Notes under the pieces: model-generated | What the model was told of the DNA's origin: nothing | The model's input: the letters and a program-made list of their open reading frames with translations, nothing else | The model's database searches: none | IMG/VR virus record: IMGVR_UViG_3300024264_000011 | Coordinates: 1 to 64,000 of that record | Reading direction: 5' to 3' (one strand) | Origin: a virus | Length of the DNA stretch: 64,000 nucleotides | Made by a program: the position numbers and the translations under genes | Shown: positions 2,645 through 47,850 of the stretch, piece by piece | Numbering within the stretch: the first letter of the stretch is position 1 | How the letters are laid out: each line of letters opens with the position of its first letter

Positions 2645-3978
2645 TAGAATACTCCCATGTCTCCATATTCACCGAAGGGATTAGTTTCAGTCCAATCAAT
2701 GATTGAATCTGCTTCTGTTTCAATATCTAGGCTATCAGAAAGTGGATCATTTTGTTGCTGAATTGTACTAAATTCATTGACTACCCACTCTGCACCACTA
2801 GACAATCCTCTCAGGGTTTCATTATCAGTAAATGTTCCGTTGATATTTATCAATTCAATTTGTCTATTTGAATAGTCAAATCTTATGACTTTACCCTGTG
2901 GTTCTGCGGGGGATGGTGATATCAATATTTCTGGAGCAGAAGTGTAACCACTACCAGCATCTGTTATAGTTACTCCAGACACTACACCATTTGTTAACGT
3001 AGCAGCTGCTGTTGCTTGTGTCCCACCAGAAGGTGGTGCAGAAATAGTAACTGTTGGGGTTGTAGTGTAACCACTACCTGATTTGTATATATTAGTATTT
3101 GATAATTCGCCATTATTCAAAATACCAATAACTTTAGCAGTTTTAGATGTACCAGAAACAGTCTCCTGAACTTCAAAGTTTTTATTGTTTGCCAATACTA
3201 TAGTAGCTGTAGCACCATTTCCAGTACCAGATATGAAAACATTGGAAGTAGTTTCAAAACCAATACCAGGTTCTATAACTGTAATATCTGAGATAACACC
3301 AGCAGTTGTAACTGCTGGTTTAATAACTGAACCAGAACCAGGAGTACTTACAGTTGTTGTTGTTGTTGCACCATATCCAGTACCTCCATTAGTTACAACC
3401 ACATCCGATAAACCACCCCTTTGTAAGTCGAAAGTGAGCGAATATCCAACTTCAGCAGGTATGAGATCAATTTCATCAATTTTAGTTTCAAGTCTTTCGT
3501 CACTAAATTCCATGAGTTCACATACCATCTGATAAGTTGGTAAATCACCCAACTGTCTCAGTGGTATTTCATTCTCTACAAACTTTATCTGAAATAACTG
3601 TTTAGTTAAGGGGAAGTAAATTGCATCTCCTTCATTTGGTCTTTCATCGCTAACTAAGTTAGAGGAAGAAGAAACCAAGTCATCCCATCTCCTTCTAGAG
3701 ACTACAAAAGTTGCTTCTTCTGCAATTCTAATTCCAAACTTAGTTAGTAATGTGCCATCACCTTCAAAACCTTCATAGTTTAACAAATAAACTTCAATTA
3801 AATAATTTTCATCAAATACAGAAACTGTATCTTCATTGAAAATTTGATCTCTATTTACAATTTCTCTAGGTAGATAATAGACATCATGTCCATAAATTTT
3901 TATAGACTCAATGATTAAATCTTCTACAAGTCTCTGTTCGGAGAATGTTCCGTGTGTAAAATAAACGTTTTTAGCCAT
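2644..3978 (-). CDS. gp14: Neck protein with G/T-rich insertion
   Basis: EQRLVEDLIIESIKIYGHDVYYLPRE...RPNEGDAIYFP...DWTETNPFG. Confidence 0.95.
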   Translation of the reverse strand: MAKNVYFTHGTFSEQRLVEDLIIESIKIYGHDVYYLPREIVNRDQIFNEDTVSVFDENYLIEVYLLNYEGFEGDGTLLTKFGIRIAEEATFVVSRRRWDDLVSSSSNLVSDERPNEGDAIYFPLTKQLFQIKFVENEIPLRQLGDLPTYQMVCELMEFSDERLETKIDEIDLIPAEVGYSLTFDLQRGGLSDVVVTNGGTGYGATTTTTVSTPGSGSVIKPAVTTAGVISDITVIEPGIGFETTSNVFISGTGNGATATIVLANNKNFEVQETVSGTSKTAKVIGILNNGELSNTNIYKSGSGYTTTPTVTISAPPSGGTQATAAATLTNGVVSGVTITDAGSGYTSAPEILISPSPAEPQGKVIRFDYSNRQIELININGTFTDNETLRGLSSGAEWVVNEFSTIQQQNDPLSDSLDIETEADSIIDWTETNPFGEYGDMGVF

Positions 3979-19600: not shown

Positions 19601-22600
19601 GTCTAAGTATTCTACTGGATTTGAAACACCTGGTATATCATCACCAATTCTAATAATTGTAATTTTAGCACCAACAGATGTTAATGCGGTTGAATTGAAT
19701 ATAATTCTGTCTGTTACACTATTAACACTATATGGAGAAACTGTGTATGCAAAACCTGCTTTTTGTACAACACCATCAATTGCCACCATAATTTCATTTG
19801 CATCACTTAATGCATCAGTTGCACTACCACTAAATCGTAAGTCATATGTTAATGTTGATGTATTAGAAACTGTCAATACATCATACTCTTGACCTAGAGT
19901 TGTTTGATCAGCAAATGCAATAATATAAAGATCACTAATATCTACATCTTCAGCGAAAGTGAATGTAAATGTCTGTGAACCAGATCCAGAAGGAACATTT
20001 ACACTGTATGCACTAGATAATCTTGTTTGTAAAATACCATTATTAAATACAAGGAATTTATTAGATGTTGTAGCATCCGCAGTAGCAGTTATTGTGGTAG
20101 AATTAGTTTGAGATAATGTAGATGTAATATTAACTAAATTAGAATCACCACTACCAATAATATTCAACATGAAGATGTCTTCTGTTGTTTGTGGTGCAGT
20201 AGTAAATCTAATGAATGGGAATGTGTTATTATCTTGGATCGAATAGTCAACACCAACTTCTTGAAAGACACCATTTCTGAGTACAAGAACATTTACATCA
20301 TTATCTACAGTAGTATTAGTGTAATTTGTAGTTAATGCAAAATCTGTTTGTGTGCCATTTATATAATTAGCAAACTCTAATGTTTCATTCTGATTAATTC
20401 CATCATATGCATAGAAAGCGAATATAGTACCATCTTCATCTGGTGATGGAGCATCAGAGAAAGTTATATTACCACTAGTAATAGTATAATCTATACTTGG
20501 TTTTTGTAGTACTCCGTTTCTAACAACAAAGAAGTTATTTGTGACAAAACTAGACTGTAATATGCCATCAATCGTGATTGGGAAAGTTGTTCTTGAATCA
20601 TCAAAACATACAAATGGATCCAATACAACATTCTTTGTTGATAATGGTGATAACTGTCTATTAAAGAATACAAGATTAATATCATCAGAAGCTTCTGGAG
20701 CATCTACAAAAGTAATTTTATTGTCATTTACCGTATGACCATTAAAAGTTCTAACTTTATGGTCTGTGTAAGAAGATACAGGATATTGTAGTTCATCATT
20801 TTTTATAACAAAAATATCACCGACATTATTAACATACTTTGGAACACCTCTATCAGAAAGATTAAACTTAGTTCTAGTACCATTCTGGACTACTCCTAAT
20901 CTATCAATAATAGTACCATTTTCATTATTTGTATTTGATAAAAATTCACTCACATAATCAATCAACGTACAATTAATAGACGAGGCGTAAGCTGTAGAGA
21001 AAGTGATATTAGAACCACTAACACTATATTGATCATGGTCTAGTACTTGATTATCAATGTATACTACAAGACTTTCTTCTCCATTGCTTGGAGTGTAATT
21101 TTTACCATCTCTCTTAATAGAGAAGGTAGTAGTTGAACCATTGAAAGATAACTTATCCAGGACTTCTACATAACTGCTGGAATATCTTGGACTTGTATAT
21201 GTAAATCTAGTATCAAAACCTTCAACTCTTGTAGCAGAAGCTGGGTAGACAGTACCATCTATAAGTTCATTTCTTGATTCATAAAATGATTGTGCATTTT
21301 TAACTGCATTTGACTCAATAAATTGTTGTTTCTCATTAGCAGAAGTACAATGTAAGATCGATTGGATTCTGTTTTGATTTAATAAAGCAGTATCAATACT
21401 TTCACAAGTGATAGTTTCATTTTGAATATACCAACCAAATACCAAACTTGGATCTACAGAAGACTCAAAAGTTATCTGGTTTCCACTGATAGTAAAATCT
21501 TGTGCAGGGACTAATTGAGTTTGGAATACTCCCAAATAGAAAATTAAAAGCTCGCAATGATCAGAAGGAGTATGATTTAAAGTAAATACAGTATTATTTG
21601 TTTGTGGGTTTGTGAATGATAATTTTCTAAGATTCTCATGTCTTACTGCACAGACTTTGGTATTGTCAAATCCAATATTAACACCTAAACCAACTGTATT
21701 ATTGGATACAGTTAATAAATTAGGATTTTGTACTACTCCAGCAACAGATATAATAAATTGTTCCAGTGTGGAAGATGTCACAGAATAAGAAACACTATCT
21801 TTAGTGAATGAAATAGCGTTACTATTTGTAGATAATGTACTGGTATCCAATACATCAAAATTATTAATTATATTTGTTGGATCTGTAGAATCATATCTTG
21901 GTGAAATTCTATAGAGATAAATTTCATCTGTGGATAAGAAATCAAAATTTGGTACAAAATAATATTCATTATTGTTTGTAGTTGACGCTGCTACTTCAAA
22001 GGAAGTATCATGTTCCTGGTATATTCCACTAAAGAAAGCCAGAGATAAATCTGTAGAATCAAAATTAGCAAAAGCAAAATCTTGAGTAATTCTTACAATA
22101 ATTTCACGAAGTTGGAATTCTTTTTTACTTCTAATTTCTACATATATGAAGTACTCAGTAACTTTAACAACTTGTGCAATAGCACCACTAATAGTTCCAT
22201 AAATGTAATTGCCAACAGAATATAGAGAAGTATCTTGTAAAAGAAGTCTTCTCTGATAACATGGAGATAACTTGACATTCAAGTTAATATCACTAGAAAT
22301 TGCTGCGGTGAAGATGACACTGCTCTTGAAAACCTGATCCGAGAAGAATTTCTTTCTTCTCTCAATAACTTTTTTACCAAACTGTTTGAATCCAGCTGGG
22401 TGTGTATTAATATCTTGTGTTTTTTTCCACTCCTTAGTGTCTCTGGAAGAGACTATAGAATATGACCAATTTTGATAATAATTACTATCAGTTACTCTTT
22501 GGGAGTAGTCACTAACGTTACCTCTAGTATCAGTAATTTTTCTAGGAAGATCAACTTTAGATTCTATTCCAGCAGACACTTTAGATCTCTTTGTAGAAAC

Positions 22601-28600: not shown

Positions 28601-28651
28601 ATTCTCAATTAAAGTGGAGAGAATTGAGTCTTTTTGATCGAGGTATATCAT
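16685..28651 (-). CDS. gp7: Giant baseplate wedge initiator (3988 aa) with YHYH-like, CBM-like, repeat and reelin-like regions
   Basis: Lies between gp6 and gp8; IENQFPDFVQE...SFYASKGSLNSHRILFRILF; HSPVVGFSCDGIPIY...FIEDYEY...TPEFPDGKYYY; DSNYYQNWSYSI...HPAGFKQF. Confidence 0.88.
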   Translation of the reverse strand: MIYLDQKDSILSTLIENQFPDFVQENNERFVNFVTSYYQSQELKFKPLDIASNLTEYYNISYFRPNNLVQKTKLNMSSNLSKTAEVITVDSTDGFPEKDGYIKINDEIIFYRTTTKTTFEDCVRGTTALVLDREVTTDIVLTSSKTAEHLDKSEVVNIAYFYANEFFSRIKSELVPLLPEVLVDDIDLGSFISRIRSFYASKGSLNSHRILFRILFNDRRFNIILKRRGFGAKLKINNTRGKVDSSPPPQIVSGGVNYDNRIENGTLVNPPIISIIGSGTGVVSNGIRENTTAVIDVSGINSDGVITSITVSDEGENYRGPISAVVRNRKFLEDQVVYNESRTGSGRVEYYDSFTDELLLYDVVGYFAPNDELFTDDGEKARAFVAKSFTSPVASRNGFQVDGEEQNIEFPRNYTFSPSSASSISPVITKFKYLTGDLEGGFLPQVVTLVQDADRKYKIPGATIGIDTSFSLENNVYQVDISRETDINHIYLQPTTIIIREQSIIIGDTDFIISVDDASRFPLNNGVIFVDGVEIYYKSRTMKQFFGCEYPQIAGIQTENITLDVENEVVSYGRMETLNKWTSGESITKDDLRYNGISLYRALNSGTSGSTAPTHTSGSAYDGTIINSTPVEWKYVVKNRYNYSFYIKNSDSTVIDPSFRILGVPSTLSVEDGGALNFDSTYRFIDNDDKNISTFNQSDSETSDIFTTIFPNPQVNYVDDSRFVNIYYHTTGIQSKYEFGDHVYVASTAIPPWWNDITTQSGNLFDSNKNPSNAAGKLVNFTNQNSVYRINKRSLRPGGANFVGTGRKNKKSVGLDVNGIQINSYRGNTIEYGEISKIVIADGGIYPVPLRLDGTAARYDVWAGGMPRFQITSQSGSVTNRNTGSLLRIAASIKKVNFTTLYEDYQSELTGFTSKPTIELVNDSPSITQKFVLDENDIFGSGVDSLNIDADDVESLNSGDRVLFNYTNNLQSFDNLSNGTYYYVSVVNSTTDPIVIKLHTTKSDALLSKDPITLTLSAGYSSVNFKLVADPLLHPNHRDAVLDISYVNGNIDNIIVLDEGFGYVALPSIYIRGGGKTTEFKIPFGKGTDRYIEAEGPLVSNKNFYKSNYNEIENPNVSTTYDSRPSAILDFGSNVEGVAYVSDGEVSSVSITNIGQNYSVPPIIEVGAGGTEKATLTSVLDITGNSKSGLKEVIIENGGEGYTASPRLTFKSAEKRKAVVSVKLKEWTFNLPSMLSRNGRIDEYGGYVFNTDDVVPSANNEATFKVVDQNLDFAKSLDSKEYYILTFADKLVAYDIHQRNSAIRSTYPNLNSNVNNIVSAEYHSPVVGFSCDGIPIYASNKHYSDPRGNSSLEEVKSRYKLKYSTSQPSTTNRLSVSISSTTYWVSRDGGPDISDYPIGSFIEDYEYSADTTLGSLDKFNGRYAVTPEFPDGKYYYVATTSSYDSVTNSLLTNSTAGNPSSASIPTGFPFVVGDEFASTYDDYNNNKCRTSDRIPKVFERAYEGPQSKSDDLNYSGYEGNDYYPSEDTSRTKSVISQRIPNSQFDKSFTSSYGGYSLSSGSVDSCIIENAGNNYKVGDKLIFDNNLTGGSGASAFVSRVGGKKITNIKILPNTDNKSVEFTTDSSHGLIYGDYVFFEYDKVNESLIGDGYFNETINLSSPSGSESQFVAVTSAGLSGTKLENININAFLIYKIVGDNIELYADLEKQQPLFEISEVESNYIIIDPRKLPDTFFVHSSTITKVFIVQKTRDYSGKYRVARYVSPTKFVINFIESVENYYDERLRYSAKSAGATGPIVDITISNKGSGYRRLPSISSIVKKGTIASDNQIAGDGKAIVQLDSTSIGKLKNFNYSAVSSFTENINVRHKVKTPVTAKVTNNFEIDSVEVLSGGSLYDNVVTLLVNGDSARANLKATVSVGTITKVEVIDGGSNFSEVPIITVSSQEGSGASFKVNIKRKNLLPNAPITTDRVSKKYPVAIEGLVTGFDPLSSTIQINETSGFFIDNDVIKTSNGQIYGNLVSTKRSKVSAGIESKVDLPRKITDTRGNVSDYSQRVTDSNYYQNWSYSIVSSRDTKEWKKTQDINTHPAGFKQFGKKVIERRKKFFSDQVFKSSVIFTAAISSDINLNVKLSPCYQRRLLLQDTSLYSVGNYIYGTISGAIAQVVKVTEYFIYVEIRSKKEFQLREIIVRITQDFAFANFDSTDLSLAFFSGIYQEHDTSFEVAASTTNNNEYYFVPNFDFLSTDEIYLYRISPRYDSTDPTNIINNFDVLDTSTLSTNSNAISFTKDSVSYSVTSSTLEQFIISVAGVVQNPNLLTVSNNTVGLGVNIGFDNTKVCAVRHENLRKLSFTNPQTNNTVFTLNHTPSDHCELLIFYLGVFQTQLVPAQDFTISGNQITFESSVDPSLVFGWYIQNETITCESIDTALLNQNRIQSILHCTSANEKQQFIESNAVKNAQSFYESRNELIDGTVYPASATRVEGFDTRFTYTSPRYSSSYVEVLDKLSFNGSTTTFSIKRDGKNYTPSNGEESLVVYIDNQVLDHDQYSVSGSNITFSTAYASSINCTLIDYVSEFLSNTNNENGTIIDRLGVVQNGTRTKFNLSDRGVPKYVNNVGDIFVIKNDELQYPVSSYTDHKVRTFNGHTVNDNKITFVDAPEASDDINLVFFNRQLSPLSTKNVVLDPFVCFDDSRTTFPITIDGILQSSFVTNNFFVVRNGVLQKPSIDYTITSGNITFSDAPSPDEDGTIFAFYAYDGINQNETLEFANYINGTQTDFALTTNYTNTTVDNDVNVLVLRNGVFQEVGVDYSIQDNNTFPFIRFTTAPQTTEDIFMLNIIGSGDSNLVNITSTLSQTNSTTITATADATTSNKFLVFNNGILQTRLSSAYSVNVPSGSGSQTFTFTFAEDVDISDLYIIAFADQTTLGQEYDVLTVSNTSTLTYDLRFSGSATDALSDANEIMVAIDGVVQKAGFAYTVSPYSVNSVTDRIIFNSTALTSVGAKITIIRIGDDIPGVSNPVEYLDFIDDNYTKVTRTENGVSILPTRYKLVYTAGNGFQSFNPSISDPADLLIIRAGVVQNPTQDYVVGPGYIEFTTNVEETEDIYVLHAHGRDELTITGGSTVSTNQTDYVVSSTISSSDEDKIIIYADGVPRFKRRGDFTVYNNNTIRLTHSDGFAPTQVFVVKYPNVQLIDEFQYCPNGERTIFKLFYNQANLIAANILTDADILAVKNGIVLDPSTEYSISTSRGLITFTDAPAHNDTIMLIRMSENTALTLVDDPGSSNTRRYNFGNSYSESLQRENVVIFSNNKWRFAELGHFTWNNDNTVTLSENHTTGTLFAIKFFGVFNLLDQINTPFNGSITRFNLFDGEENFVPVGTVSDDDTPDPTSLLVVKNGDILEPGHDFDIEPITDNETQIVFTTAPVASDVISVRSVGSFDKLDTKTSSSGTVFELTKSGNVYYPNYDIDRPRKLENQLLVVKDGEVQSPLYDYYIDNEKIRFTSSVSFSRLFIMDFRGTYGDVRVFNRISEVNTGDKIQIPGEEEERTVTAVLSPTILTTASYSGDGPSGFAATATYSSGKVTGFTVSNKGGGYDTPVVIRTKGTGTGAKATALVETIYGNRVEESSIDIQYGGYNIYTNPTVVATQYASVYKLQPLNKSEIRKATKLLQNINNSVETFDVGNGTGLPSNPPTVTVTSSSGSGANFKVYVSGGEIRKIDLLNGGSGYDDRDFTIGITGGGGDGCVLEGVLNSSGTITSVIIQNPGVGYDTNRVFFYKEVSGEVEAEGVEYTYVTENSISSVGFDTTNSDGIYEFGNGTAIVSGGTGVGSTGGFDIGTHLRFGDTSGTRFVTFDPIDSRGVNSVRVYAVRGNDSNGGETPDVVGDEDLRIQYQSTSSGAAPDGNSWVDLGIVIDAVPNGSGTGVLDNYDFNLPTAVQGEHVYFRLIQDDNSGSDYDHYGILSISFLGYPTYTLDGCTRGAVGTARSHTSSDLVYFDSYL

Positions 28652-30741
28652 GAGCAGCTGTATGGATCTTCTTCTGGTACAAAGTCATCTAAATCAATTG
28701 GTGGTCCGATAATACCTTCACCGTCTCCGTCACCTGGAGTATCAATATCTGGTGGTATTGCTGGGATGTCGGGAACACCGCCGCCAGGACCCTGAGTAAT
28801 TGGTGGAGTTCCTGGTGGGTCTATAGTACCACCACTGTCATCACCTGGTGGTGGATCACTAGTTATAAGACCAGGATATTCGTATCTTGGTTCATCATCA
28901 GAACCTGGTGGTGGATCACCATCATCACCTTCATTAATAGATGGAGGTAATACTGTAATTTCTGGTATTGTCCCAGGACCTGTTGGTATCTCTATAACTT
29001 CAGGGATAACTATAGTATTTATTGTAACATTATCACAGGCCTGAACTTGGAATTCTACCTCTCCTGTTAACGGATCAACAGAGCCGACTTCTTTGATTGG
29101 TTGCAACGTGTCTGCATTATACAGATAAAGAATATTGTCTGTATCACAACCAGATAGAGCTCCAACAAATACTGGACTTGGTATACCAACATGACAAAAA
29201 GGATCCGTGATAACATAAAATGGATCTTTTGTATCAGTTTTTAATTTTGTATAGAAATTTGGATCATAGTTTCTGTTAATTAATCCTTGTAAATCAACAG
29301 GTTGCTGCAAATAGACTGGTAATTCTACATACTGAATTGCATCATCAAGTCCTTTAATTTTACATCTCAATGAAAGATCAGAGTAAATACCACCAAACTT
29401 ATTAAAGTCTGTAGAATTTACATATTCACCAACTACACCATTTATTAAACTTACTAAATCAGAAGATCTATTTCTAGTTTTATCTGGATCGTATTGAATT
29501 ACAGGTTTAACTACAAAATTCAAGTATTCAGGATCAACAACACTGACTTTTACAGAACCAACTTTATACTTATCCATTTCACCAGCAATTCTGTCTTTTT
29601 CATAATCACTGACAAATTGACCAACTGTAGGTTTAATTGCAATAAAAACTTCTCCAAATCTTGGTGGTTTTAAGTTTTCGCCACCGATAACACGTACTAA
29701 GTCAGCATTTGGGTAAATCTGTTGAATAATTGATTCATAATCAGAAAGTGTTACTGCTCTTTCTTGAGATGCATAATATCTTGGAGCTCTATATTTAATT
29801 GACTTAATTGTCTCATAGTCAGATCCACCATCAGATCTATCCACACCATCACTTAGTTCAAAATCAATTTTTGATAAATTTAGAAGTGTACCTTCAGTTG
29901 TTGTACTAGAATCTGCAGGACTGCCGGTATATCCTCTTATCTTTCCGTTATATTTGAATTCTTTAATACCGTTCGCTTGACCACCACCAGTTACTACGTA
30001 AGATATTCTTATAATTTCACCATCTCGTACTTTTCTACCGATTACATCATCACCAAATACAATTTCATATTTTTGATCTTGTACTTCTTCGACAAAGAAA
30101 ACAGTATCAGCGTTATTTACATCTACAATAGTATCTTTTTTGGTATATTCAATTTCAATATTATTTGTAGGATCTGGAATAACAAATACTCTAAAAGTTT
30201 CTGAATCTACAAAATTATTAGGCACAAAGAATCTTTGGTGTTCATTTGAACTATCTACAACATAAGAAATACTATATTCAGTACCTTCAACTAATGCAAT
30301 ATCACGTAATGTTGTTTTGGACTTACCTTTTACATTTGCTTCAATATCATTTCTCGTCAAAAAGGTATAATTTTTACCATTATTATTCGCTGTAAGAACA
30401 GAACCTGCTGTTAATAAAATATAATCGTAATCTTCAATACCAGTTACAGTCAAATTTACAGATACCTTAGAAGAGGTATAGGAATTTGCAGTATATCCTA
30501 GTCTCTTTGCAATAGAAACAACATTGTCTCTGAGTACAGCAGTATCGAGATTTAACTCGTTAGATGCCATATTCAAATTATAGTTAGTATATAATGTATT
30601 ATATGCTAGTACATCAACCAGCATAGAAAGGTTAGAACCTTCAAAGTCATAGTCTTTGAAGTCTGTTTTTGTTTTTATATACTCTTTGATCGAACTTTTT
30701 ACCTGATCAAATTCTAACGCTGATACTATTGGTAATTCCAT
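28648..30741 (-). CDS. gp6: Baseplate wedge subunit with Pro/Asp/Gly-rich C-terminal tail
   Basis: LEFDQVKSSIKEYI...DYDFEGSNLSMLVDVLAYNT...YEIVFGDDVIG...QERAVTLSDY. Confidence 0.95.
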   Translation of the reverse strand: MELPIVSALEFDQVKSSIKEYIKTKTDFKDYDFEGSNLSMLVDVLAYNTLYTNYNLNMASNELNLDTAVLRDNVVSIAKRLGYTANSYTSSKVSVNLTVTGIEDYDYILLTAGSVLTANNNGKNYTFLTRNDIEANVKGKSKTTLRDIALVEGTEYSISYVVDSSNEHQRFFVPNNFVDSETFRVFVIPDPTNNIEIEYTKKDTIVDVNNADTVFFVEEVQDQKYEIVFGDDVIGRKVRDGEIIRISYVVTGGGQANGIKEFKYNGKIRGYTGSPADSSTTTEGTLLNLSKIDFELSDGVDRSDGGSDYETIKSIKYRAPRYYASQERAVTLSDYESIIQQIYPNADLVRVIGGENLKPPRFGEVFIAIKPTVGQFVSDYEKDRIAGEMDKYKVGSVKVSVVDPEYLNFVVKPVIQYDPDKTRNRSSDLVSLINGVVGEYVNSTDFNKFGGIYSDLSLRCKIKGLDDAIQYVELPVYLQQPVDLQGLINRNYDPNFYTKLKTDTKDPFYVITDPFCHVGIPSPVFVGALSGCDTDNILYLYNADTLQPIKEVGSVDPLTGEVEFQVQACDNVTINTIVIPEVIEIPTGPGTIPEITVLPPSINEGDDGDPPPGSDDEPRYEYPGLITSDPPPGDDSGGTIDPPGTPPITQGPGGGVPDIPAIPPDIDTPGDGDGEGIIGPPIDLDDFVPEEDPYSCS

Positions 30742-31203
30742 TTAACTTTCTCTTACTAGTATGAATGATAGATTTTGAACTTCTGGTGGTGAACCAACTA
30801 TTTCATACTCAATAATTACCTCAAATCCAGAGTCAATTGTAGCATCTGGTGTTGGTGGATTTACTTCAATAGCTACCAGTTTGATTCTTGGTTCATAGGT
30901 TACAAGTACCTTTTCAATTTGTTCAATTAATGCATTTGATGAGACCCCAGTATTTAATTCAAACAAATATGAAGTAGTATCAGTTCCTACAAGTGGATTA
31001 AATGGTCGTTCATTTACTTTGGTCAAAACTAAATTTTTGACCGACTGTTTTATCGATTCTTCATTCTTTAACACAACAATATCACCAGTCACAGGATTAC
31101 GAGCAAAATTTAAACTAAGGTCTTTAAAGGCCCTAGAAATTTTGCCAAGGTAATTAGACTGTAAAGTCCTCTTTCCAGTTACTGAACCTAGATACTGCGG
31201 CAT
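30742..31203 (-). CDS. gp25: Baseplate wedge subunit
   Basis: SRAFKDLSLNFARNPVTGDI...IKQSVKNLVLT..NERPFNP...YEPRI. Confidence 0.93.
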   Translation of the reverse strand: MPQYLGSVTGKRTLQSNYLGKISRAFKDLSLNFARNPVTGDIVVLKNEESIKQSVKNLVLTKVNERPFNPLVGTDTTSYLFELNTGVSSNALIEQIEKVLVTYEPRIKLVAIEVNPPTPDATIDSGFEVIIEYEIVGSPPEVQNLSFILVRES

Positions 31204-38437: not shown

Positions 38438-38764
38438 CTATGCGAGACGCATACCGGAACGAAACTCAGTGGTGAAAAACTCTGTACCGTTCCACAATCT
38501 GATGAACCACTCAAAGTTTTTCTGGAATACACCCTCTCCAGTGACACCGTGTTCTGAAAGAATTGCATTCAAACGTGACTTAGTGGTGTTTGACTGATAA
38601 CCCCCATCATACAGTTTGATCGAATCGTCTGTGATTTCTGCGATCAGATTGTTGTGAAGATAGACAGAGGAGACACCCTCGACGGTCTCAACGCGAGTGT
38701 TTGCAGTTCTCCAGTCTGTACCCTCTGAGATTGCATTGTTCATGAGGGTTTCGATTTTACGCAT
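38438..38764 (-). CDS. Conserved early cyanophage protein, paralog 1
   Basis: MRKIETLMNNAI...DGGYQSNTTKSRLNAI...GVFQKNFEWFI. Confidence 0.8.
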   Translation of the reverse strand: MRKIETLMNNAISEGTDWRTANTRVETVEGVSSVYLHNNLIAEITDDSIKLYDGGYQSNTTKSRLNAILSEHGVTGEGVFQKNFEWFIRLWNGTEFFTTEFRSGMRLA

Positions 38765-39376: not shown

Positions 39377-39703
39377 TTAAGCAAACTCAGCGAATGTGTA
39401 ACCATCAACGAAATCATGGATGACTTTGTTGTCACGAATGAACCACTGAAAATCCTTCTGAAAGACACCATCAGTGAACGCACAACAGAACTCGTTGATG
39501 ATAGCGTTGAGACGTGATTTAGTTGTGTTTGATTGATACCCACCATCAAAGATGGTAACAAAGTCATCACCAACCTTTGCAATCAAGTTACCATGCAAAC
39601 GCACCTCAGACACACCGTCTTCAGTGGTAACACTAGTGTTTGCGTTAGTCCAGTTCTTGTTTGACTTGATCGCGTTGTTCATCTGGGTTTCGATCTTACG
39701 CAT
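39377..39703 (-). CDS. Conserved early cyanophage protein, paralog 2
   Basis: MRKIETQMNNAI...DGGYQSNTTKSRLNAI...GVFQKDFQWFI; same length (108 aa) as paralog 1. Confidence 0.8.
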   Translation of the reverse strand: MRKIETQMNNAIKSNKNWTNANTSVTTEDGVSEVRLHGNLIAKVGDDFVTIFDGGYQSNTTKSRLNAIINEFCCAFTDGVFQKDFQWFIRDNKVIHDFVDGYTFAEFA

Positions 39704-40922: not shown

Positions 40923-40943
40923 GTGGTTTTTTGACTTGAAACT

Positions 40944-41001
40944 ACAATACACGATTTTGACCCCCATATGGGGGTCAGTGGACACCTTCTAGACTGTCAC
41001 A
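40944..41001 (-). promoter_or_regulatory. Early promoter + dyad, with a stem-loop over the -35 region
   Basis: -10 TATTGT at 40944-40949; palindrome tgacccccatatgggggtca; GTGGACA-N10-TGTCACA at 40978-41001. Confidence 0.72.
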
Positions 41002-41126
41002 GGACAAAGTGAATCAAATGCATCGCAAAGTTCATCGATCAAAATGTCATTTGGTTTCTTTGGAAAGTGAGAATCAACAATCTCATAGATTTTTTCAATC
41101 ATTTGATCCTTTTGAGTTTGTGTCAT
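40989..41126 (-). CDS. Hypothetical protein (45 aa)
   Basis: MTQTQKDQMIEKIYEIVDSHF...IDELCDAFD; stop lies inside the dyad. Confidence 0.55.
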   Translation of the reverse strand: MTQTQKDQMIEKIYEIVDSHFPKKPNDILIDELCDAFDSLCPVTV

Positions 41127-41153
41127 TTTGGTCCAAATCTTGACTACCAACTA

Positions 41154-41211
41154 ACAATACAGGATCTAGATCTAAAATCAAGTGATAATGGACAGTTCAT
41201 GAATTGGTTGC
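41154..41211 (-). promoter_or_regulatory. Early promoter + degenerate dyad
   Basis: -10 TATTGT at 41154-41159, TTGAtt -35, ATGGACA at 41188-41194. Confidence 0.6.
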
Positions 41212-41403
41212 AGGCCCACTGTCAATCTTCTGACTGTCACATAACTTCTTTACATTTTTGTATTCACAGTTGTATACTACTAGACGAGTTTGTTGTTGTT
41301 TAGGAAACTCATCACCTAAAAGTATACTTAATGACCATTCACAAATGAATATAACCTTTCCTGTATTGTTCTTGTAGTTTACTAGATCTCCAATTTTAAA
41401 CAT
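41197..41403 (-). CDS. Hypothetical protein (KOW/SH3-like)
   Basis: MFKIGDLVNYKNNTGKVIFIC. Confidence 0.6.
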   Translation of the reverse strand: MFKIGDLVNYKNNTGKVIFICEWSLSILLGDEFPKQQQTRLVVYNCEYKNVKKLCDSQKIDSGPATNS

Positions 41404-41647
41404 TATTGATCCTCTTATTATAGTGATTACGAATTATTTCCATTAATGATTGCTGTAACTTAGGATCAGATGTTTCATTATATGCTTGTATATACAATGC
41501 CATTGCATCATCTGGCCGTGGTATTGTCATACCTTTCTTTGACAAACTATACTTACTAAGTTCATATGTGCCTGGGCGTGTCTTTATCTTTTGTCTTCCA
41601 AAGTTGCCAGTGACAGCACCTTTCATCCTGGGCATCTTTGAAGCCAT
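41396..41647 (-). CDS. Basic hypothetical protein
   Basis: 83-aa ORF behind a consensus promoter. Confidence 0.65.
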   Translation of the reverse strand: MASKMPRMKGAVTGNFGRQKIKTRPGTYELSKYSLSKKGMTIPRPDDAMALYIQAYNETSDPKLQQSLMEIIRNHYNKRINNV

Positions 41648-41676
41648 AGAGCATCCTTTGAACGTCTGACAGAGCT

Positions 41677-41705
41677 ATTATACAGAGTTTCTGTCATGCT
41701 GTCAA
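41677..41705 (-). promoter_or_regulatory. Consensus sigma70 promoter
   Basis: TTGACA-17-TATAAT exact. Confidence 0.85.
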
Positions 41706-41710
41706 GGGGT

Positions 41711-42174
41711 TGTGGAAAAGTAGTTTTCCACACGTACATATTACATATGATAATAATTTCACATGTCATGTATATGCATATATCATATGTTAATAATTTA
41801 GTAAACTATCCAAGTATACTCAGAAGACCTTAGAGGGGTCTTAGAGGTCCTTCTAGGGGTCTCTGAGAGCACATATACACACATATCATATGTTAATAAT
41901 ATGCATACATATGATAATAATTTAAATCTCTGAGTTTTCCACAGGGCCTCGGAGGTTTTCTGAGCTTGGCGACCTTGACATTTTCATAGATTGCGGGTAA
42001 AGGTAACAACAACTCAGAGGATTACCAGAGGTTTATCATAGATTACCACACACATATGATAATAATCCCCTCTTACATACACATATGATAATAATTACAA
42101 AACTCTCAGCCACATTTAATTAACCATTCTTTTTCCACAGGTTTTTCCACAATTTATGCGGAACTTGTGGATAA
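41711..42174. other. Origin-like non-coding element: 6 DnaA boxes + 6 iteron-like repeats
   Basis: TT(T/A)TCCACA at 41711(-), 41724, 41935, 42131, 42143, 42166(-); CATATG(A/T)TAATAAT at 41744, 41784, 41887, 41908, 42053, 42082; longest ORF-free stretch in the window. Confidence 0.7.
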
Positions 42175-42177
42175 AGG

Positions 42178-42753
42178 TCAAGCATACCATCCAACTAATG
42201 TTATTCTCTGACCTTTCTTCAATGGTTTGACTCTATGTGGCACAGTCGATGGGAACACAATGAAATCACCATAGTTAAACTTATGAGTAAAGATTGAATC
42301 ATCTTGTTGTATTTGAAACTCTCCACCTACATAATCTTTCTTATGAGATAGACAATACACAATACTGATTCTTCTTATACCCATGTTATGTTTTTCATTT
42401 AGAGCAGTACACTCTGGGTAGTAATCTTTATGCCAACCATAGTGATGTCCTTTATCAGTATATCTTGTATATTGAATATGACTTTCCCATTTGTTATCTA
42501 ATGGCAGTTTCCATTGTTGATCATTACAATGGCGAATGATGTTAGCGAATCCTTCATTGATGAAATTAACTGAATCTGTTGGAATCCAGTTTGTATGACA
42601 CTTTCGGAGTTTACCATTGACACCATCAAGTAACGAACCTTCACCTGGTTGTTCATCTTTGAAACAGAGATTACATGTGTCTTGTACTTCATCAGTTGCT
42701 TTATCATTACCTAAGTTACCAATAATGAATTCAGGTCGGATGAGTTGTTTCAT
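42178..42753 (-). CDS. 2OG-Fe(II) oxygenase
   Basis: YGWHKD...RRISIV...YVGGEF...FPSTVPHRVKPLKKGQRITLVGW (HxD...H, R). Confidence 0.88.
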   Translation of the reverse strand: MKQLIRPEFIIGNLGNDKATDEVQDTCNLCFKDEQPGEGSLLDGVNGKLRKCHTNWIPTDSVNFINEGFANIIRHCNDQQWKLPLDNKWESHIQYTRYTDKGHHYGWHKDYYPECTALNEKHNMGIRRISIVYCLSHKKDYVGGEFQIQQDDSIFTHKFNYGDFIVFPSTVPHRVKPLKKGQRITLVGWYA

Positions 42754-43121
42754 TGTCTCCATTTAGGTTGTTTGTCCCATGATTGTTCAATCAGTTGTGA
42801 TACCAATTGATCACGCAAGTTGTTGATCTTATCTTCAGTGAATTGAGCGAAGTTATCTCTCTTGTCCACTTTCTTGTAATAATGCAAAGCATTCAGTATT
42901 ATTGTTTGTTCAGTCATTGTAAGTTGGTACTGATGTGTTTCATGAATCAAGAAACAATCAATTGGAAATAATCCTTCCTTATTCTTAACCTTAACTTTCT
43001 TTTCTTGAATGTTCTCAAGTGTGTAAGTATAACCAAGAATCAACGTCGATCGATTTGGTGCTGGTCCTGGTTGTTTAATGAGTTCAATACGATCGCCTGG
43101 TTTCATTTCTTTACGGGCCAA
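42750..43121 (-). CDS. Hypothetical protein
   Basis: 123-aa ORF (start may be ATG at 43106); ATGA coupled to the oxygenase. Confidence 0.55.
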   Translation of the reverse strand: MARKEMKPGDRIELIKQPGPAPNRSTLILGYTYTLENIQEKKVKVKNKEGLFPIDCFLIHETHQYQLTMTEQTIILNALHYYKKVDKRDNFAQFTEDKINNLRDQLVSQLIEQSWDKQPKWRQ

Positions 43122-43172: not shown

Positions 43173-43436
43173 CTAGACATGTTCTTGTAACTTATACTCT
43201 TTCTTATCTAGTTGATATCGACGAATATACTTTTCTGCATGTTCATAACATTGAAAATGACATACTTTATTCTCTTTACGATCCTCTAATCTCCATGGAA
43301 ATGTAGAATACGGAAACAACTTAGTATCCTTTGATTTTGTCCATTTGATCTCCGTCTCTTTGACTTTACGTTTCCGTGTTGTCTTTTCTGTGAGTTTGGC
43401 AATATTACGTGCAAGAGCATTTTGTGTCTTAGACAT
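43173..43436 (-). CDS. Conserved cyanophage hypothetical protein
   Basis: LFPYSTFPWRLEDRKENKVCHFQCYEHAEKYIRRY. Confidence 0.7.
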   Translation of the reverse strand: MSKTQNALARNIAKLTEKTTRKRKVKETEIKWTKSKDTKLFPYSTFPWRLEDRKENKVCHFQCYEHAEKYIRRYQLDKKEYKLQEHV

Positions 43437-44043
43437 AAGGACCTTCCTTGATTGCATTCTTATCAAAGACATACTCATCATACATTACATAATCATCCTT
43501 ATCATAATCACATTGGAATACTGGATCTTGTTTAAACTCTTCCATCTCCTTGTAGAACTCATCTAGATCATCATACAATCCTTGATAGTATGAATCAAAG
43601 TGAACTAATTGATCAACTGGGAAGTGTTGAAGAAATACATTCACTGCATCATTAGAATATGTTGATGAATACCCTTGATAGTCATCATAATACTTTTGAA
43701 ACTGATCTAATGGTAGATTTTCTGTTGCTGCATCAAAGATATCATCAATGATCCAATTATGATTCTCTTTAAACGTTTGTAGATCAGTTAGATATATGAG
43801 AAGATCAGTTTCTTGTTTATCACATGATGCTTCTTCAGCAACTTCTTCAAACTTATTCTCTCCAACATCAGAAATAATACTATTCACAATCTCATGAAAG
43901 ATACTGATCTTTTCATATTCTTCAGTGAGATGTTCAAATAGAATTTCATTCTTTTCTGCATCAGACATATGTTCTAATCTATACCATGTTGCAGCGGAGA
44001 TGAGATCATACTCCTTAGAATCAATTTCAGAAAATACAGTCAT
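43429..44043 (-). CDS. Acidic ArdA-like antirestriction/DNA-mimic candidate
   Basis: Very D/E-rich; C-terminal FDSYYQGLYDDLDEFYKE...DY...YVF resembles the ArdA C-terminus. Confidence 0.55.
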   Translation of the reverse strand: MTVFSEIDSKEYDLISAATWYRLEHMSDAEKNEILFEHLTEEYEKISIFHEIVNSIISDVGENKFEEVAEEASCDKQETDLLIYLTDLQTFKENHNWIIDDIFDAATENLPLDQFQKYYDDYQGYSSTYSNDAVNVFLQHFPVDQLVHFDSYYQGLYDDLDEFYKEMEEFKQDPVFQCDYDKDDYVMYDEYVFDKNAIKEGPYV

Positions 44044-44342
44044 GAGTTCTCCCAATAAGGATTAAATACATACTTACCACAAATAAAGTAATCACATTCA
44101 AGTTCTTCTAGATTCACATCATTAATCTCATCAATGATTGCAAGATCAAAACAGTTGGCAAGATCACCAAATGCAGCATCATATGAATCTTCCGCACATA
44201 TGGTTTTCATATGATCTAAGAATTCATCAATTGTATTCTCATCATATGAATCAACATACCGTTCATACAAATCAAAATAGTAATCAGTCTCAAATGAACA
44301 TTCTCCATACAAAGAACGATAATGATCTAAAAGTTCAGTCAT
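44040..44342 (-). CDS. Acidic protein, divergent paralog of the adjacent ArdA-like gene
   Basis: About 26 D/E vs 4 K/R in 100 aa; YYFDLYERYVDSYDENTIDEFL...DY...YVF. Confidence 0.5.
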   Translation of the reverse strand: MTELLDHYRSLYGECSFETDYYFDLYERYVDSYDENTIDEFLDHMKTICAEDSYDAAFGDLANCFDLAIIDEINDVNLEELECDYFICGKYVFNPYWENS

Positions 44343-44539
44343 CAGTGAGTTACCTTGAAACAAACAGAATTGAATTTACCTGTGATACCTTCTAATGATA
44401 CCTTTGTGTGTTGTCGATGAACTTCTACATCAGTGAGAATGTATACTTCATTCAGTATACATGGTGGCCAATCATTGTTACCCCACTGTTGTTGTTCCTT
44501 GGTACAACCTATAAACTGTACACGATCACCTGGGTTCAT
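44342..44539 (-). CDS. Conserved hypothetical protein
   Basis: GDRVQFIGCTKEQQQWGNND...EVHRQHTKVSL..GKFNSVCF. Confidence 0.7.
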   Translation of the reverse strand: MNPGDRVQFIGCTKEQQQWGNNDWPPCILNEVYILTDVEVHRQHTKVSLEGITGKFNSVCFKVTH

Positions 44540-45130: not shown

Positions 45131-46537
45131 TCAGTACGTCCCGATCCAAGACCGACCCCGTACCACCGATGAACAGTATTGTTTGGTGAATACTTCTGTT
45201 GCACATTTCCACGTAGAAGTATTGGGCAAATAAACATCAAAAGAGTTATTTGCAACCAACTGATTAATTAATGTAGGGTTATCTTTGATAGACCTTGCAT
45301 AATCAGTAAGATCATAATCATCAAGTTCAACACCAGGATTTAAACGCACAAGACGACCAAGTTGTTGAAGAAAACTGATGATGATTTCTTCACCACTAGA
45401 ATCACGTTTGATATTACTGCGGAATGACATATAAGATGACAAGTTCTTGATATCCATTCCACATTTACCTTTCTCAACTGTCAGTAGAAATGTCAGTGGA
45501 TGTTCTGGATCACGAAGATTTTCTTTGATTTCATCGTCACCATCATCACACACAATACGAGATCCATTGATAGAATACATTGCTTTTTCTTCAGCTGACA
45601 TAATTGCAAGAATAGGTTCATCACGATCAAACCAAGGATTCTGTTCCAGATAGTCTAGAATTTGTTTTTTTGTATATTCAATAGTCCAGGGATTTGCATT
45701 TTTACTGTCAATATTTGGAGCACACTGAATCATCATAGTTTGTTTTTTGTTTGCAAGTCCACGACGATTAGTGAATTTTGACAGTGCATTTTGCAGTGCA
45801 AAAACTGCATCTGACATGTCAAATAACTCACAATTATCTAACCATGCACTCCTACCAATCAAGAGTTCCTTTGGACAAAATTGATTTACAATACAGAACT
45901 CCATACCAGGAGCTGGGTTAATCTTATTCAGATGTTCTGCATTGGGTGTTGCAGTGATACCAAAAATCTTTGATGTAATTTTAGATACATTCATACACCA
46001 CTTAAACAAGACTGCATTATAGTCCGATGGAGTGTTACCAGTTACATTCTTGTAATTCTCAAAACAGGAAACAGTCCACAAATGTGCTTCGTCAATGATC
46101 ACTGCACAATCTGTATTGGTTTTAACCAACCATTCACCAAACTCTTTTCCTGCAGTTCCACCAGACAGAGAAGCATGATTAATTGTCAAAAGAACTGGAA
46201 TACCTTTGTTGATTTCTTTTTTTACTTTTGCAAACAAACGTTTGTTGTTTTTATGTCCACGAGTGCTTTCAAATTTTGCACCACACTCGAATGCAATATC
46301 TTCAAACAGATCATCCTCACGAACAGAATCTTCTGGTACTGAGTATATGGTTAACTTAGTTTTTTTGTTACGAATAAGTTCAGGAATCCAATCATATACA
46401 CAAGAGTGAGTTTTACCCTGACCAGTCACACCAGTGAAGATGTGCATTTTATTCCTGAGAGTATCAAAATTATTACGATCTACTAGTTCCATGAAAGGAT
46501 TAACTAGGTAGTCAATGCGTGGATCAGTCATGGACAT
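45131..46537 (-). CDS. Divergent superfamily-2 (ResIII-like) helicase/ATPase
   Basis: Walker A TGVTGQGKT, IIDEAH, TATP, motif VI QQLGRLVR. Confidence 0.8.
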   Translation of the reverse strand: MSMTDPRIDYLVNPFMELVDRNNFDTLRNKMHIFTGVTGQGKTHSCVYDWIPELIRNKKTKLTIYSVPEDSVREDDLFEDIAFECGAKFESTRGHKNNKRLFAKVKKEINKGIPVLLTINHASLSGGTAGKEFGEWLVKTNTDCAVIIDEAHLWTVSCFENYKNVTGNTPSDYNAVLFKWCMNVSKITSKIFGITATPNAEHLNKINPAPGMEFCIVNQFCPKELLIGRSAWLDNCELFDMSDAVFALQNALSKFTNRRGLANKKQTMMIQCAPNIDSKNANPWTIEYTKKQILDYLEQNPWFDRDEPILAIMSAEEKAMYSINGSRIVCDDGDDEIKENLRDPEHPLTFLLTVEKGKCGMDIKNLSSYMSFRSNIKRDSSGEEIIISFLQQLGRLVRLNPGVELDDYDLTDYARSIKDNPTLINQLVANNSFDVYLPNTSTWKCATEVFTKQYCSSVVRGRSWIGTY

Positions 46538-46555
46538 TTGATTGATTACTTGGCT

Positions 46556-46614
46556 AATATACAGGTTATGGGGTCGGAAGTCAAGGGGTTGTGACCAGTT
46601 CGTAAACTGGACTA
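46556..46614 (-). promoter_or_regulatory. Early promoter + degenerate dyad
   Basis: TTGACT-17-TATATT; GTGACCA-N10-TGGACTA at 46591-46614. Confidence 0.7.
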
Positions 46615-47850
46615 AGCAAATACCTCAACCGACTTACCTTCCTTAAAAATAGAGTCAACAACATACTGGAGACGTTTTGCAACAGCACCACCATGATTCT
46701 TATGAACTGGGACAGTCACAAACCCAGTAGATTTGCGATAGAGTTGACACTGACCTGCAGGAATCTTACCGGATTGAATATCTTTGATATCGTCAATATG
46801 CAGACGGATAACACGACCGATAGTCTGTGCCATCTCAATCAATGGAAGATTACGCAGCAAAATGCAGTGAGTCAAACCAGGTACGTTGATACCCTCAGAC
46901 AGAATGGAATAGTGAAACAACAGGAATTTCTTGTTGTCATCTTTACCATAACGAGTCAGAGTGTCAAAGAATACCTCACGACTCACTTTTGTTTTGTTGA
47001 CATATGCACCGTGTTTAGAGGTGATATGCATGATCTCAAAACCACGTTCTGTGAGTTGTTGAATCACATCAGATTGTGTCAACATGTTCCACAGAACGCG
47101 AGTCGATGGTGCAGCAACTAATACTTTGGATGCATTAGTTTCATCAAGTGTGTCAAGAATACTCAGGACAGTTTCACTATCAACCTGTGCAGCAGTATCC
47201 TTCTGACGTACAATGTCAGTCTCGTGAGTATGAATAGTGGGAGGAATGATCGAACCAGACTCAATCAGTTCTTGTGCAGGTACTTTTTCAATCACATCTC
47301 CGTACACAAAAGTATTATTCATACCGTTTGCATGTGGGTCGCGATTGTTACGCGGAGTCGCAGTGAAGTAATACGAACGACGCGCAATCATGGACGCAGA
47401 TGCAACAGACTTGAAGAAATCTCTGCGGGTAGAGTTATGTGCTTCATCACAATACATCACGTCAATGTCAATACCTGCACTCACAACCTTGTTCAAAGAG
47501 TTGTAAGTAGTGAAGATGATGCAGGACTCAGATGCAGCACGCGCAACGTTGTTGAACATTGCGATCTTGTCAGATTTGGTGGAAGAGAAATACTCAGTCT
47601 CACCACTGTGAACATGACAAACATGCACCCATGTGCGAGAGATTTGTTCCATGAACTCACTGCAAAGTTGGTTTGCAAGGAGAATACGTGGAGAAACAAC
47701 TACGATGGTCTTAGGACCACTCTTAAGAGCGTTGATTGCATCAACAATCATGCACAGAGTCTTACCACCACCAGTAGGAACAAAGATGCGACCTTTGTTG
47801 AATTCCTGCATCTTGTTAGTGATGCGGGTTTGGTGGGAACGAAGAATCAT
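46612..47850 (-). CDS. DEAD/DEAH-like (type III restriction Res-subunit family) helicase
   Basis: VPTGGGKT, YCDEAH, FTATP, ILSEGINVPGL, QTIGRVIR. Confidence 0.9.
   Translation of the reverse strand: MILRSHQTRITNKMQEFNKGRIFVPTGGGKTLCMIVDAINALKSGPKTIVVVSPRILLANQLCSEFMEQISRTWVHVCHVHSGETEYFSSTKSDKIAMFNNVARAASESCIIFTTYNSLNKVVSAGIDIDVMYCDEAHNSTRRDFFKSVASASMIARRSYYFTATPRNNRDPHANGMNNTFVYGDVIEKVPAQELIESGSIIPPTIHTHETDIVRQKDTAAQVDSETVLSILDTLDETNASKVLVAAPSTRVLWNMLTQSDVIQQLTERGFEIMHITSKHGAYVNKTKVSREVFFDTLTRYGKDDNKKFLLFHYSILSEGINVPGLTHCILLRNLPLIEMAQTIGRVIRLHIDDIKDIQSGKIPAGQCQLYRKSTGFVTVPVHKNHGGAVAKRLQYVVDSIFKEGKSVEVFA

Follow-up and report, generated by a model that had tools for sequence, protein, structure and literature searches.

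The window analysed here is the first 64 kb (64,000 nucleotides) of the IMG/VR virus record IMGVR_UViG_3300024264_000011, which is 107 kb long in total, has a G+C content of 36% and is estimated to be 58% complete. Nearly every gene of the record is carried on the minus strand. Between a 2OG-Fe(II) oxygenase gene and an open reading frame (ORF) of 83 amino acids (aa), both on the minus strand, lies a non-coding interval of 530 bases (positions 41648-42177), referred to below as the module, in which DnaA boxes of cyanobacterial type are interleaved with 14-bp repeats and flanked by promoter-type sequences. The record contains a T4-like myovirus gene set, including neck, sheath-stabiliser and baseplate wedge genes of the gp6, gp8 and gp25 types as well as gp32, PhoH, ThyX and RNase H, and the SF2 helicase of the window is 58-64% identical to homologues from cultured Synechococcus and Prochlorococcus myoviruses, that of S-BM3 being the nearest. 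On the basis of this gene set and helicase identity, the virus is classified as an uncultured, fairly divergent member of the Kyanoviridae. With the module region as query, blastn matched nothing among cultured phages, from which this phage is too divergent. A DNA contig from an independent sample covers positions 41180-43044 with a single difference, indicating that the region is not an assembly artefact.

Read in the gene orientation (minus strand), the module opens with a trio of DnaA boxes after the stop codon of the upstream gene, followed by an AT-rich block, 14-bp repeats, a core with a promoter-like element that faces backward, further repeats, and a forward early promoter. An earlier note on this locus had described the boxes, the repeats and the forward promoter, and this part of its anatomy was confirmed, with each of the six DnaA boxes and six 14-bp repeats found in place; it had missed the backward promoter-like element and the AT-rich block beside the trio. 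Its description of the DNA as ORF-free holds in substance, since the only overlapping ORFs are mechanical ones of 39-48 aa and the indels found there in relatives are not multiples of three.

DnaA boxes, repeats and promoter-type elements of the module

Five exact copies of TTTTCCACA are present in the module, at 41711 on the minus strand and at 41724, 41935, 42131 and 42143 on the plus strand, together with one copy of TTATCCACA at 42166 on the minus strand. A genome-wide count of boxes against expectation, which had been proposed as a check, gave a strong excess: six exact 9-mers were found in 464 bp where ~0.02 were expected (Poisson P for at least six, ~5e-14). Outside the module, TTWTCCACA occurs twice in the rest of the 64-kb window and four times in the rest of the 107 kb, with 2.5 per 64 kb in shuffled sequences, and TTTTCCACA itself occurs once elsewhere in the record. 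The distal trio (42131-42174) consists of tandem TTTTCCACA boxes at 42131 and 42143, separated by 3 bp, and the convergent TTATCCACA box at 42166 (minus strand) across a 14-bp spacer; 4 bp separate the end of the trio from the stop codon of the oxygenase gene. The middle TTTTCCACA box (41935-41943, plus strand) lies in a segment that is missing from several close relatives, and the closest sublineage has a box at -296 or -303. At the other end of the module, the boxes at 41711 (minus) and 41724 (plus) form an inverted pair with a 4-bp spacer (41711-41732; TGTGGAAAA-ctac... on the plus strand) that is positioned 5 bp upstream of the -35 element of the early promoter, an arrangement found in this sublineage only.

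The 9-mer TTTTCCACA has been described as the "species-specific" cyanobacterial DnaA box, and in gel-shift assays DnaA domain IV binds tandem copies with a 2-bp spacing, as demonstrated with a Cyanothece box 2-3 probe (PMC4674748). The boxes of the module are therefore the cyanobacterial DnaA consensus, as had been claimed. Across phage loci, the spacers between convergent boxes fall into classes of 4-5, 13-16 and 25-27 bp, and these steps of about one helical turn point to proteins arrayed on one face of the helix; bacterial spacers are mostly 4-5 bp. Where one box faces two tandem boxes in bacterial chromosomes, a dnaA-type Walker motif was found within 8 kb in 33 of the 120 loci among those listed. 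Host DnaA probably binds the phage boxes. The DnaA domain IV family (Bac_DnaA_C) was found neither in this record nor in four complete box-bearing phages. As a separate observation, the pattern TTTTCCACA-N4-16-TGTGGAAAA-N2-3-TGTGGAAAA (loci L174-L293) is very common in Pyrinomonadaceae, other Acidobacteriota and Clostridia, and no cyanobacterium was present among the 80 matches listed from the trio scan of bacterial genomes.

The second set of elements comprises six exact same-strand copies of CATATGWTAATAAT, at 41744, 41784, 41887, 41908, 42053 and 42082. Shuffled sequences gave an expectation of 0.31 copies even with one mismatch, and no further copies were detected anywhere in the 107 kb. 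The spacing of the repeats, whose unit in this lineage can also be written ATTATTAWCATATG, is irregular (21, 29, 40 bp and more). Repeat group A (42053-42095, minus strand) contains two copies, at 42053-42066 and 42082-42095, which read ATTATTATCATATG in the gene orientation and form a low-stability duplex. The promoter-proximal part of group B (41744-41797, minus strand; copies at 41744-41757 and 41784-41797) is the least stable duplex of the module, with 30-mer free energies (dG) of -28.0 to -29.7, and the repeat clusters belong to the least stable 1% of 30-mers in the 64-kb window. The copies at 41887-41900 and 41908-41921 are enclosed in a GC-richer variable segment (41818-41965) that also contains the inverted repeats I1 and I5. 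AT content is 40-50% at 41820-41870 and 41930-41980, compared with 77-87% over the repeat clusters, which bears out the earlier description of GC-richer spacer blocks. Palindromes of the CTCWGAG type at 41819, 41861, 41928 and 41958, with a further copy at 42013, make up a third repeat family, on which the earlier note had not remarked: three of the eight copies in the window fall in the module, against 0.04 expected, and similar motifs are present in other modules.

By eye, the repeats and boxes were compared with the consensus sites of Fur, IHF, CRP and NtcA, and the only resemblance was of TGATAAT to a Fur half-site. A strict two-repeat pattern matched no other viral contig, and a relaxed two-copy pattern matched, among viral contigs, the known relatives, three further cyanophage contigs and, as chance hits, AT-rich giant-virus contigs. 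To judge from these searches, the 14-bp repeats are private to this lineage; they may be repeats of an unwinding element or sites for a phage protein. Two related contigs (L373 and L375) carry the repeats with a different first gene. In these same contigs a 13-bp core of the repeat is also found 4-30 nt upstream of later small ORFs (L373:3030-3280, and L375, reverse complement, ~3490-3540), which hints at a promoter or operator role.

The forward early promoter (41677-41705, minus strand) matches the sigma70-type consensus TTGACA-N17-TATAAT at 12 of 12 positions and is predicted to drive the 83-aa ORF and the small genes downstream. The perfect sigma70 promoter that had been reported to abut the element is thus real, but its strand is the minus one (41705 to 41677), so that transcription from it would leave the repeats behind and enter the 83-aa ORF. 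On the far side of the repeats, the AT-rich block CCACATTTAATTAACCATTC (plus strand, 42110-42129) adjoins the tandem boxes and is the counterpart of the family-wide CCTATnTTTTTTAAnCATTT. The GC-richer core (41975-42021, plus strand) contains the backward promoter-like element, TTGACA (41975-41980)-N17-TAAAGG (41998-42003), followed by TAACAACAAC and a CTCAGAG palindrome, and the element points towards repeat group A, the AT-rich block and the box trio. The promoter-type elements of the module are of the sigma70 -35/-10 type, and no MotA-dependent middle promoter was found among them; to our knowledge, cyanomyoviruses have no MotA.

Conservation of the module

Three IMG/VR relatives align across the region at 75-90% identity. 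A metagenome scan with an alignment of the 83-aa homologues yielded 56 loci, and the layout was judged where at least 450 bp of upstream DNA was available (~40 loci, protein identity 57-94%). All of these ~40 loci have, in the gene orientation, a box pair or trio 380-610 bp upstream of the ORF and 3-9 copies of ATTATTAWCATATR in two groups, with group A holding 2-4 copies in relatives. In most of them TTGAC[A/T]-N16-18-TA[T/G]AAT lies 58-67 bp upstream of the ORF; the strict pattern used detected no promoter in ~8 loci, and in one the promoter is at -152. When 27 distinct versions were aligned, the conserved columns corresponded to the boxes, the AT-rich block, the repeats, the GC-richer core and the promoter, and the rest was variable, with indels.

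Across these 27 distinct relatives the distal trio is invariant while its flanks vary, and the boxes are, as judged from the alignment, under selection. The gene upstream of the module varies among relatives, so that the trio marks the edge of the module. Promoter-proximal boxes differ by sublineage, being found at -85/-72, as a trio at -129/-110/-97, or singly at -19 or at -79. Such turnover with retention of promoter-proximal boxes is what would be expected from selection for DnaA binding around the module. The window studied here contains the most elaborate version met in the analysis, with six boxes, six private repeats and an inverted pair abutting the -35 element.

A scan of IMG/VR for two tandem TTTTCCACA boxes found at least 118 contigs. 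Among the tandem-box matches listed, 46 are T4-like cyanophage contigs, and in these the boxes share one genome neighbourhood, with the gp25/gp6 baseplate genes on one side and the helicase on the other. An exact convergent pair or trio is present in the early-gene region of five of the 12 cultured cyanomyoviruses sampled: S-BM3 (boxes at 6754/6778), S-SM1 (48835/48866), Syn9 (52565/52589), S-PM2 (19231/19244/19256) and P-SSM7 (45973/45996 and two more). In all five phages an AT-rich stretch comes after the boxes, and beyond it lie, in this order, a conserved block around CTTAGCACG...TGTCAA and a forward promoter of the consensus type, which is less clear in S-PM2. A 241-bp element of Syn9 was matched by blastn in 147 cultured cyanophage records, mostly in DNA without an annotated feature. 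T4 has no clustered boxes. The earlier note had named a lack of conservation at the syntenic locus in other Kyanoviridae as grounds for abandoning its proposal; the boxes are present at that locus in several genera, and the repeats are kept within the lineage. The module that it had treated as a feature of this phage is not peculiar to it, being family-wide; the 14-bp repeats are lineage-private.

The backward element recurs in this wider set. A sequence of the form TTGAC(A/T)-N14-(TGn)-TAnnnn is found with matching position and direction in 29 of the 46 T4-like IMG/VR modules, 66-240 nt from the boxes, and 20 of these 29 have the extended -10 TG. We infer that this conserved block, which reads opposite to the genes, is a sigma70-type promoter with an extended -10. 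When 15 diverse modules were analysed with RNAalifold, no base pairs (0) were predicted in the stretch between the backward promoter and the boxes, and the same stretch keeps the primary sequence CCTATnTTTTTTAAnCATTT, abutting the tandem boxes. The lack of an RNA fold together with the kept primary sequence indicates that the stretch is conserved as DNA. An RNA gene in the conserved block was accordingly rejected, and a search of Rfam and for tRNAs gave nothing in the module region or in the modules of Syn9, S-PM2 and S-SM1. An intrinsic terminator at the box hairpin was likewise rejected, as none was found in the region and there is no U-run.

Other cyanophages carry repeats of their own at the same place, including S-PM2, S-BM3 and the contigs L102, L066, L114 and L074; having private repeats is thus typical of the module as a whole. 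In S-PM2 (L152:2467-2620, corresponding to ~19466-19620), a palindrome of ~110 nt, which gives spurious matches to microRNA hairpins, and three tandem repeats of the GATTTCTTAAGATTTAA type lie just downstream of the trio. The RefSeq record of this phage (NC_006820.1) annotates tRNA-Asn and tRNA-Leu exactly over the trio, at 19177-19333, and other tRNAs over nearby protein-coding genes. An Rfam scan of 19177-19333 at E values up to 1 detected no tRNA, and the RefSeq tRNA coordinates look misplaced. A further subtype of the module was observed in T4-like cyanophage contigs (L019, L028, L058, L089, L074 and L121), with 4-8 DnaA boxes, mostly in one direction and with spacers of ~12 nt. In this L019-type subtype a forward TTGACA-N17-TATAGT promoter comes next, and the backward promoter block was not detected.

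The first gene after the module, the 83-aa ORF (41396-41647, minus strand), encodes a basic protein of unknown function with 40 homologues at 57-93% identity. Twenty-eight positions are invariant, and the basic N-terminus is invariant as MPRM.GA.TGNFG. The protein has no Pfam or PHROG family and gave nothing in the ESM Atlas, and a low-confidence AlphaFold2 model (pLDDT 66) has a disordered N-terminus and two C-terminal helices, with no recognisable DNA-binding fold. BLASTP against RepEA and RepEB of T4 gave no alignment. It is unlikely that the 83-aa protein is an obligatory partner of the repeats, because modules with the same repeats lack this ORF.

A candidate replication origin and its rivals

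With the backward promoter-like element and the AT-rich block taken into account, the core of the module resembles a T4-type origin composed of a promoter and an unwinding element. T4 oriF and oriG combine a promoter with an unwinding element and use MotA-dependent middle promoters (Kreuzer and Brister 2010, PMC3016281). T4 oriE, in the interval between genes 5 and 6, has an early sigma70-type promoter, 12-nt direct repeats whose role is unknown and small early ORFs, and is transcribed against the local gene flow (PMC3016281). The contrast with T4 drawn in the earlier note has to be amended in this light, as the direct repeats and early promoter of oriE mean that T4 is not iteron-free (PMC3016281). 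Similar to oriE, the module has an early-type backward promoter, AT-rich DNA, a cluster of 14-bp direct repeats and a small early ORF, and it is located between a gp5-like hub gene (83975-86401) and the gp25/gp6 genes (28648-31203). This synteny is loose, however, as the gp5-gp6 interval here spans ~53 kb, and no homologue of RepEA or RepEB was found. In contrast to T4 origins, the module contains DnaA boxes, whereas T4 has none and replicates independently of DnaA, and there is no sequence similarity between them.

We consider it about an even chance that the module is a phage replication origin, used early in infection and of the promoter-plus-unwinding-element type, that docks host DnaA. 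Such an origin would be used before recombination-dependent replication takes over. Host RNA polymerase would initiate at the backward promoter and transcribe into the AT-rich and repeat DNA, and host DnaA on the phased boxes would help to open the DNA or hold it open, or would halt the polymerase and so fix the end of the priming RNA, or both. An RNA-DNA hybrid or bubble would form, onto which the phage primosome of gp59, gp41 and gp61 would load, with the RNA priming the leading strand as at T4 oriF, oriG and oriE. In this lineage the module would have gained 3-9 copies of ATTATTAWCATATR, as well as further DnaA boxes close to the forward promoter. A single theta origin has been predicted for Syn9 by others, as cited in PMC2984593.

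Other known systems share parts of this layout. The combination of several same-orientation direct repeats, consensus DnaA boxes and AT-rich DNA is that of P1 oriR, F oriS, RK2 oriV and pSC101, and P1 oriR has DnaA boxes at both ends, as does the module with its distal trio and promoter-proximal pair. The iterons of these replicons are 17-22 bp long and are bound by the product of an adjacent Rep gene. Unlike them, the module has repeats of 14 bp that are unevenly spaced and AT-rich, no Rep-like gene was found next to it, and its neighbouring ORF can be absent. The module also resembles the cyanobacterial chromosomal origin oriC, where TTTTCCACA boxes lie next to dnaN (PMC4674748): the 9-mer is identical, tandem boxes are 2-3 bp apart, and, by composition only, an AT-rich element adjoins the box cluster. 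In contrast to oriC, it is located on a lytic phage outside any dnaN or dnaA context and is accompanied by flanking sigma70 promoters and private repeats. A search of the full-text literature turned up no account of DnaA boxes in T4-like cyanophages, although a prior mention is possible, notably in key Syn9 papers.

Several observations weigh against the proposed origin, the case for which rests on sequence evidence throughout. Seven of the 12 cultured cyanomyoviruses (P-SSM2, P-SSM4, P-HM1, S-SSM7, S-CRM01, S-RSM4 and P-TIM40) have no tandem boxes, even when three mismatches are allowed. In P-SSM4 and P-HM1 the backward-promoter block and AT-rich DNA are kept at the matching place and the boxes are two-mismatch remnants. 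The box-less phages and the decayed boxes imply that DnaA is not essential for the family and that perfect boxes are not indispensable. The backward promoter of the window has a perfect -35 but a poor -10 (TAAAGG, without TGn), and the -35 elements of close relatives are weaker; its activity in this phage is doubtful. Neither in this record nor in Syn9 does cumulative GC or AT skew turn at the module, and GC skew is monotonic in both; with nearly all genes on one strand, a layout that masks such a signal, this is weak evidence in either direction. RNA-library contigs from one study cover 41544-41945 and not the backward-transcribed stretch, a weak indication that was not used as evidence since the contigs are unstranded and DNA carry-over is possible. 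Finally, no Rep initiator family was detected by Pfam or PHROG in the flanking ORFs, and no initiator-like protein was found beside the repeats. The hybrid origin of the earlier note, in which host DnaA would act with a phage iteron-binding protein, retains its host-type boxes and its repeats, but no binder was identified and the adjacent 83-aa ORF is unlikely to be obligatory.

The same boxes could serve transcription rather than replication. In E. coli, DnaA is well known to regulate transcription and to act as a roadblock, and in this phage the trio might insulate the module from upstream read-through and from the antisense backward transcript, while the proximal boxes tune the early promoter by the DnaA-ATP state of the host. 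The trio invariably separates the upstream gene, whose stop codon it adjoins, from the backward promoter, in a region where no intrinsic terminator was found, and sublineages have independently placed one to three boxes 20-130 bp from the forward promoter, in this window as an inverted pair 5 bp from the -35. However, the trio is 380-610 bp from the forward promoter in most relatives, too far for direct control; the AT-rich block beside the boxes and the very existence of a non-coding backward promoter are left unexplained, and there is no evident reason for a lytic phage to link termination to the host initiator. We therefore regard a purely regulatory role for DnaA as unlikely. Greater doubt attaches to the proposal that phage early proteins such as the 83-aa protein use both the 9-mers and the 14-bp repeats as operators, at a hub for the early-to-middle switch, and that the likeness to DnaA boxes is mimicry or coincidence. 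The repeats are lineage-private and surround a strong early promoter, copies lie just upstream of later small ORFs in two related contigs, and the 83-aa ORF, with its invariant basic N-terminus, co-occurs with the repeats in ~40 loci. Yet the 9-mer is identical to the host consensus, does not vary over wide phage divergence and is arranged like the boxes found near dnaA in bacterial chromosomes. Some modules, moreover, have the repeats but not the 83-aa ORF, and the model of the 83-aa protein has no recognisable DNA-binding fold. As an explanation of the whole module the operator proposal is thus very unlikely, and for the 14-bp repeats taken by themselves it may hold.

The module might also act as a sink, titrating host DnaA as phage genomes multiply and so halting host initiation or freeing replication resources. 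In this respect it resembles E. coli datA and DnaA-regulated promoters, being a cluster of high-affinity boxes away from the chromosomal origin with boxes beside a -35. A supply of 3-9 high-affinity consensus boxes per genome, multiplied by the phage copy number, and the lack of a DnaA-like gene in the phage would suit such a role. datA acts with IHF and promotes DnaA-ATP hydrolysis; in contrast to datA, the module has a conserved AT-rich block and a backward promoter. A sink would need neither of these, nor a fixed position or helical phasing, and all four are conserved. Several relatives, moreover, manage with decayed boxes, and the benefit to phages that degrade host DNA, as T4-like phages do, is doubtful. 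A DnaA sink is the least probable of these explanations, and we give it little credence.

The origin reading can be extended to the whole group, with clearly more doubt than confidence: T4-like cyanophages may begin replicating at one promoter-plus-unwinding-element origin, which would serve the first round and recruit host DnaA; the hybrid of this lineage would add to it iterons read by a small phage protein. If true, the T4 superfamily would thereby gain its first DnaA-assisted origin. The gain, loss and decay of boxes, from the perfect boxes of Syn9, S-PM2 and P-SSM7 to the decayed ones of P-SSM4 and P-HM1, would then track dependence on the replication state of the host.

Neighbouring genes and significance

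The 2OG-Fe(II) oxygenase gene upstream (42178-42762, minus strand; Pfam PF13640, 2.5e-15) lies outside the module. Two paralogues of phrog_554 (108 aa, function unknown) are encoded on the minus strand at 38438-38764 and 39377-39703, 2-3 kb downstream of the module, and in many other cyanophage contigs a phrog_554 homologue is found 0.6-2 kb from the DnaA-box module. At 40934-41189, RNA-library contigs of a related strain (two runs of one study) lack 254 bases and have 44 different ones in their place; this segment is a small gene cassette between two conserved ORFs that is swapped in natural relatives. On the upstream side, the minus-strand region 43429-44363 contains a 208-aa ORF that matches the anti-restriction family phrog_36653 (E 4e-5) and a neighbouring 107-aa ORF without a family. 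Two adjoining SF2 helicase-like genes follow on the minus strand at 45131-47850, of which the 412-aa product is the common cyanomyovirus helicase (phrog_16) and the 468-aa product has weak DEAD and ResIII matches only and no PHROG.

The start of replication in T4-like cyanophages is unmapped. Among the viruses that infect the main primary producers of the ocean, they belong to the most abundant. A conserved single-copy module with sites for host DnaA offers a precise place and a precise host factor, in the cultured, genetically tractable systems of Syn9, S-PM2 and P-SSM7. The series of ~40 relatives shows which parts of the module are held and which are turned over, and the lineage-private repeats form a natural series in which their binding protein could be sought. 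Should host DnaA be used, this would be an unexpected departure from the T4 paradigm of independence from the host initiator. Phage replication would then be tied to the replication and energy state of the host, with a bearing on the light- and nutrient-dependent dynamics of infection.

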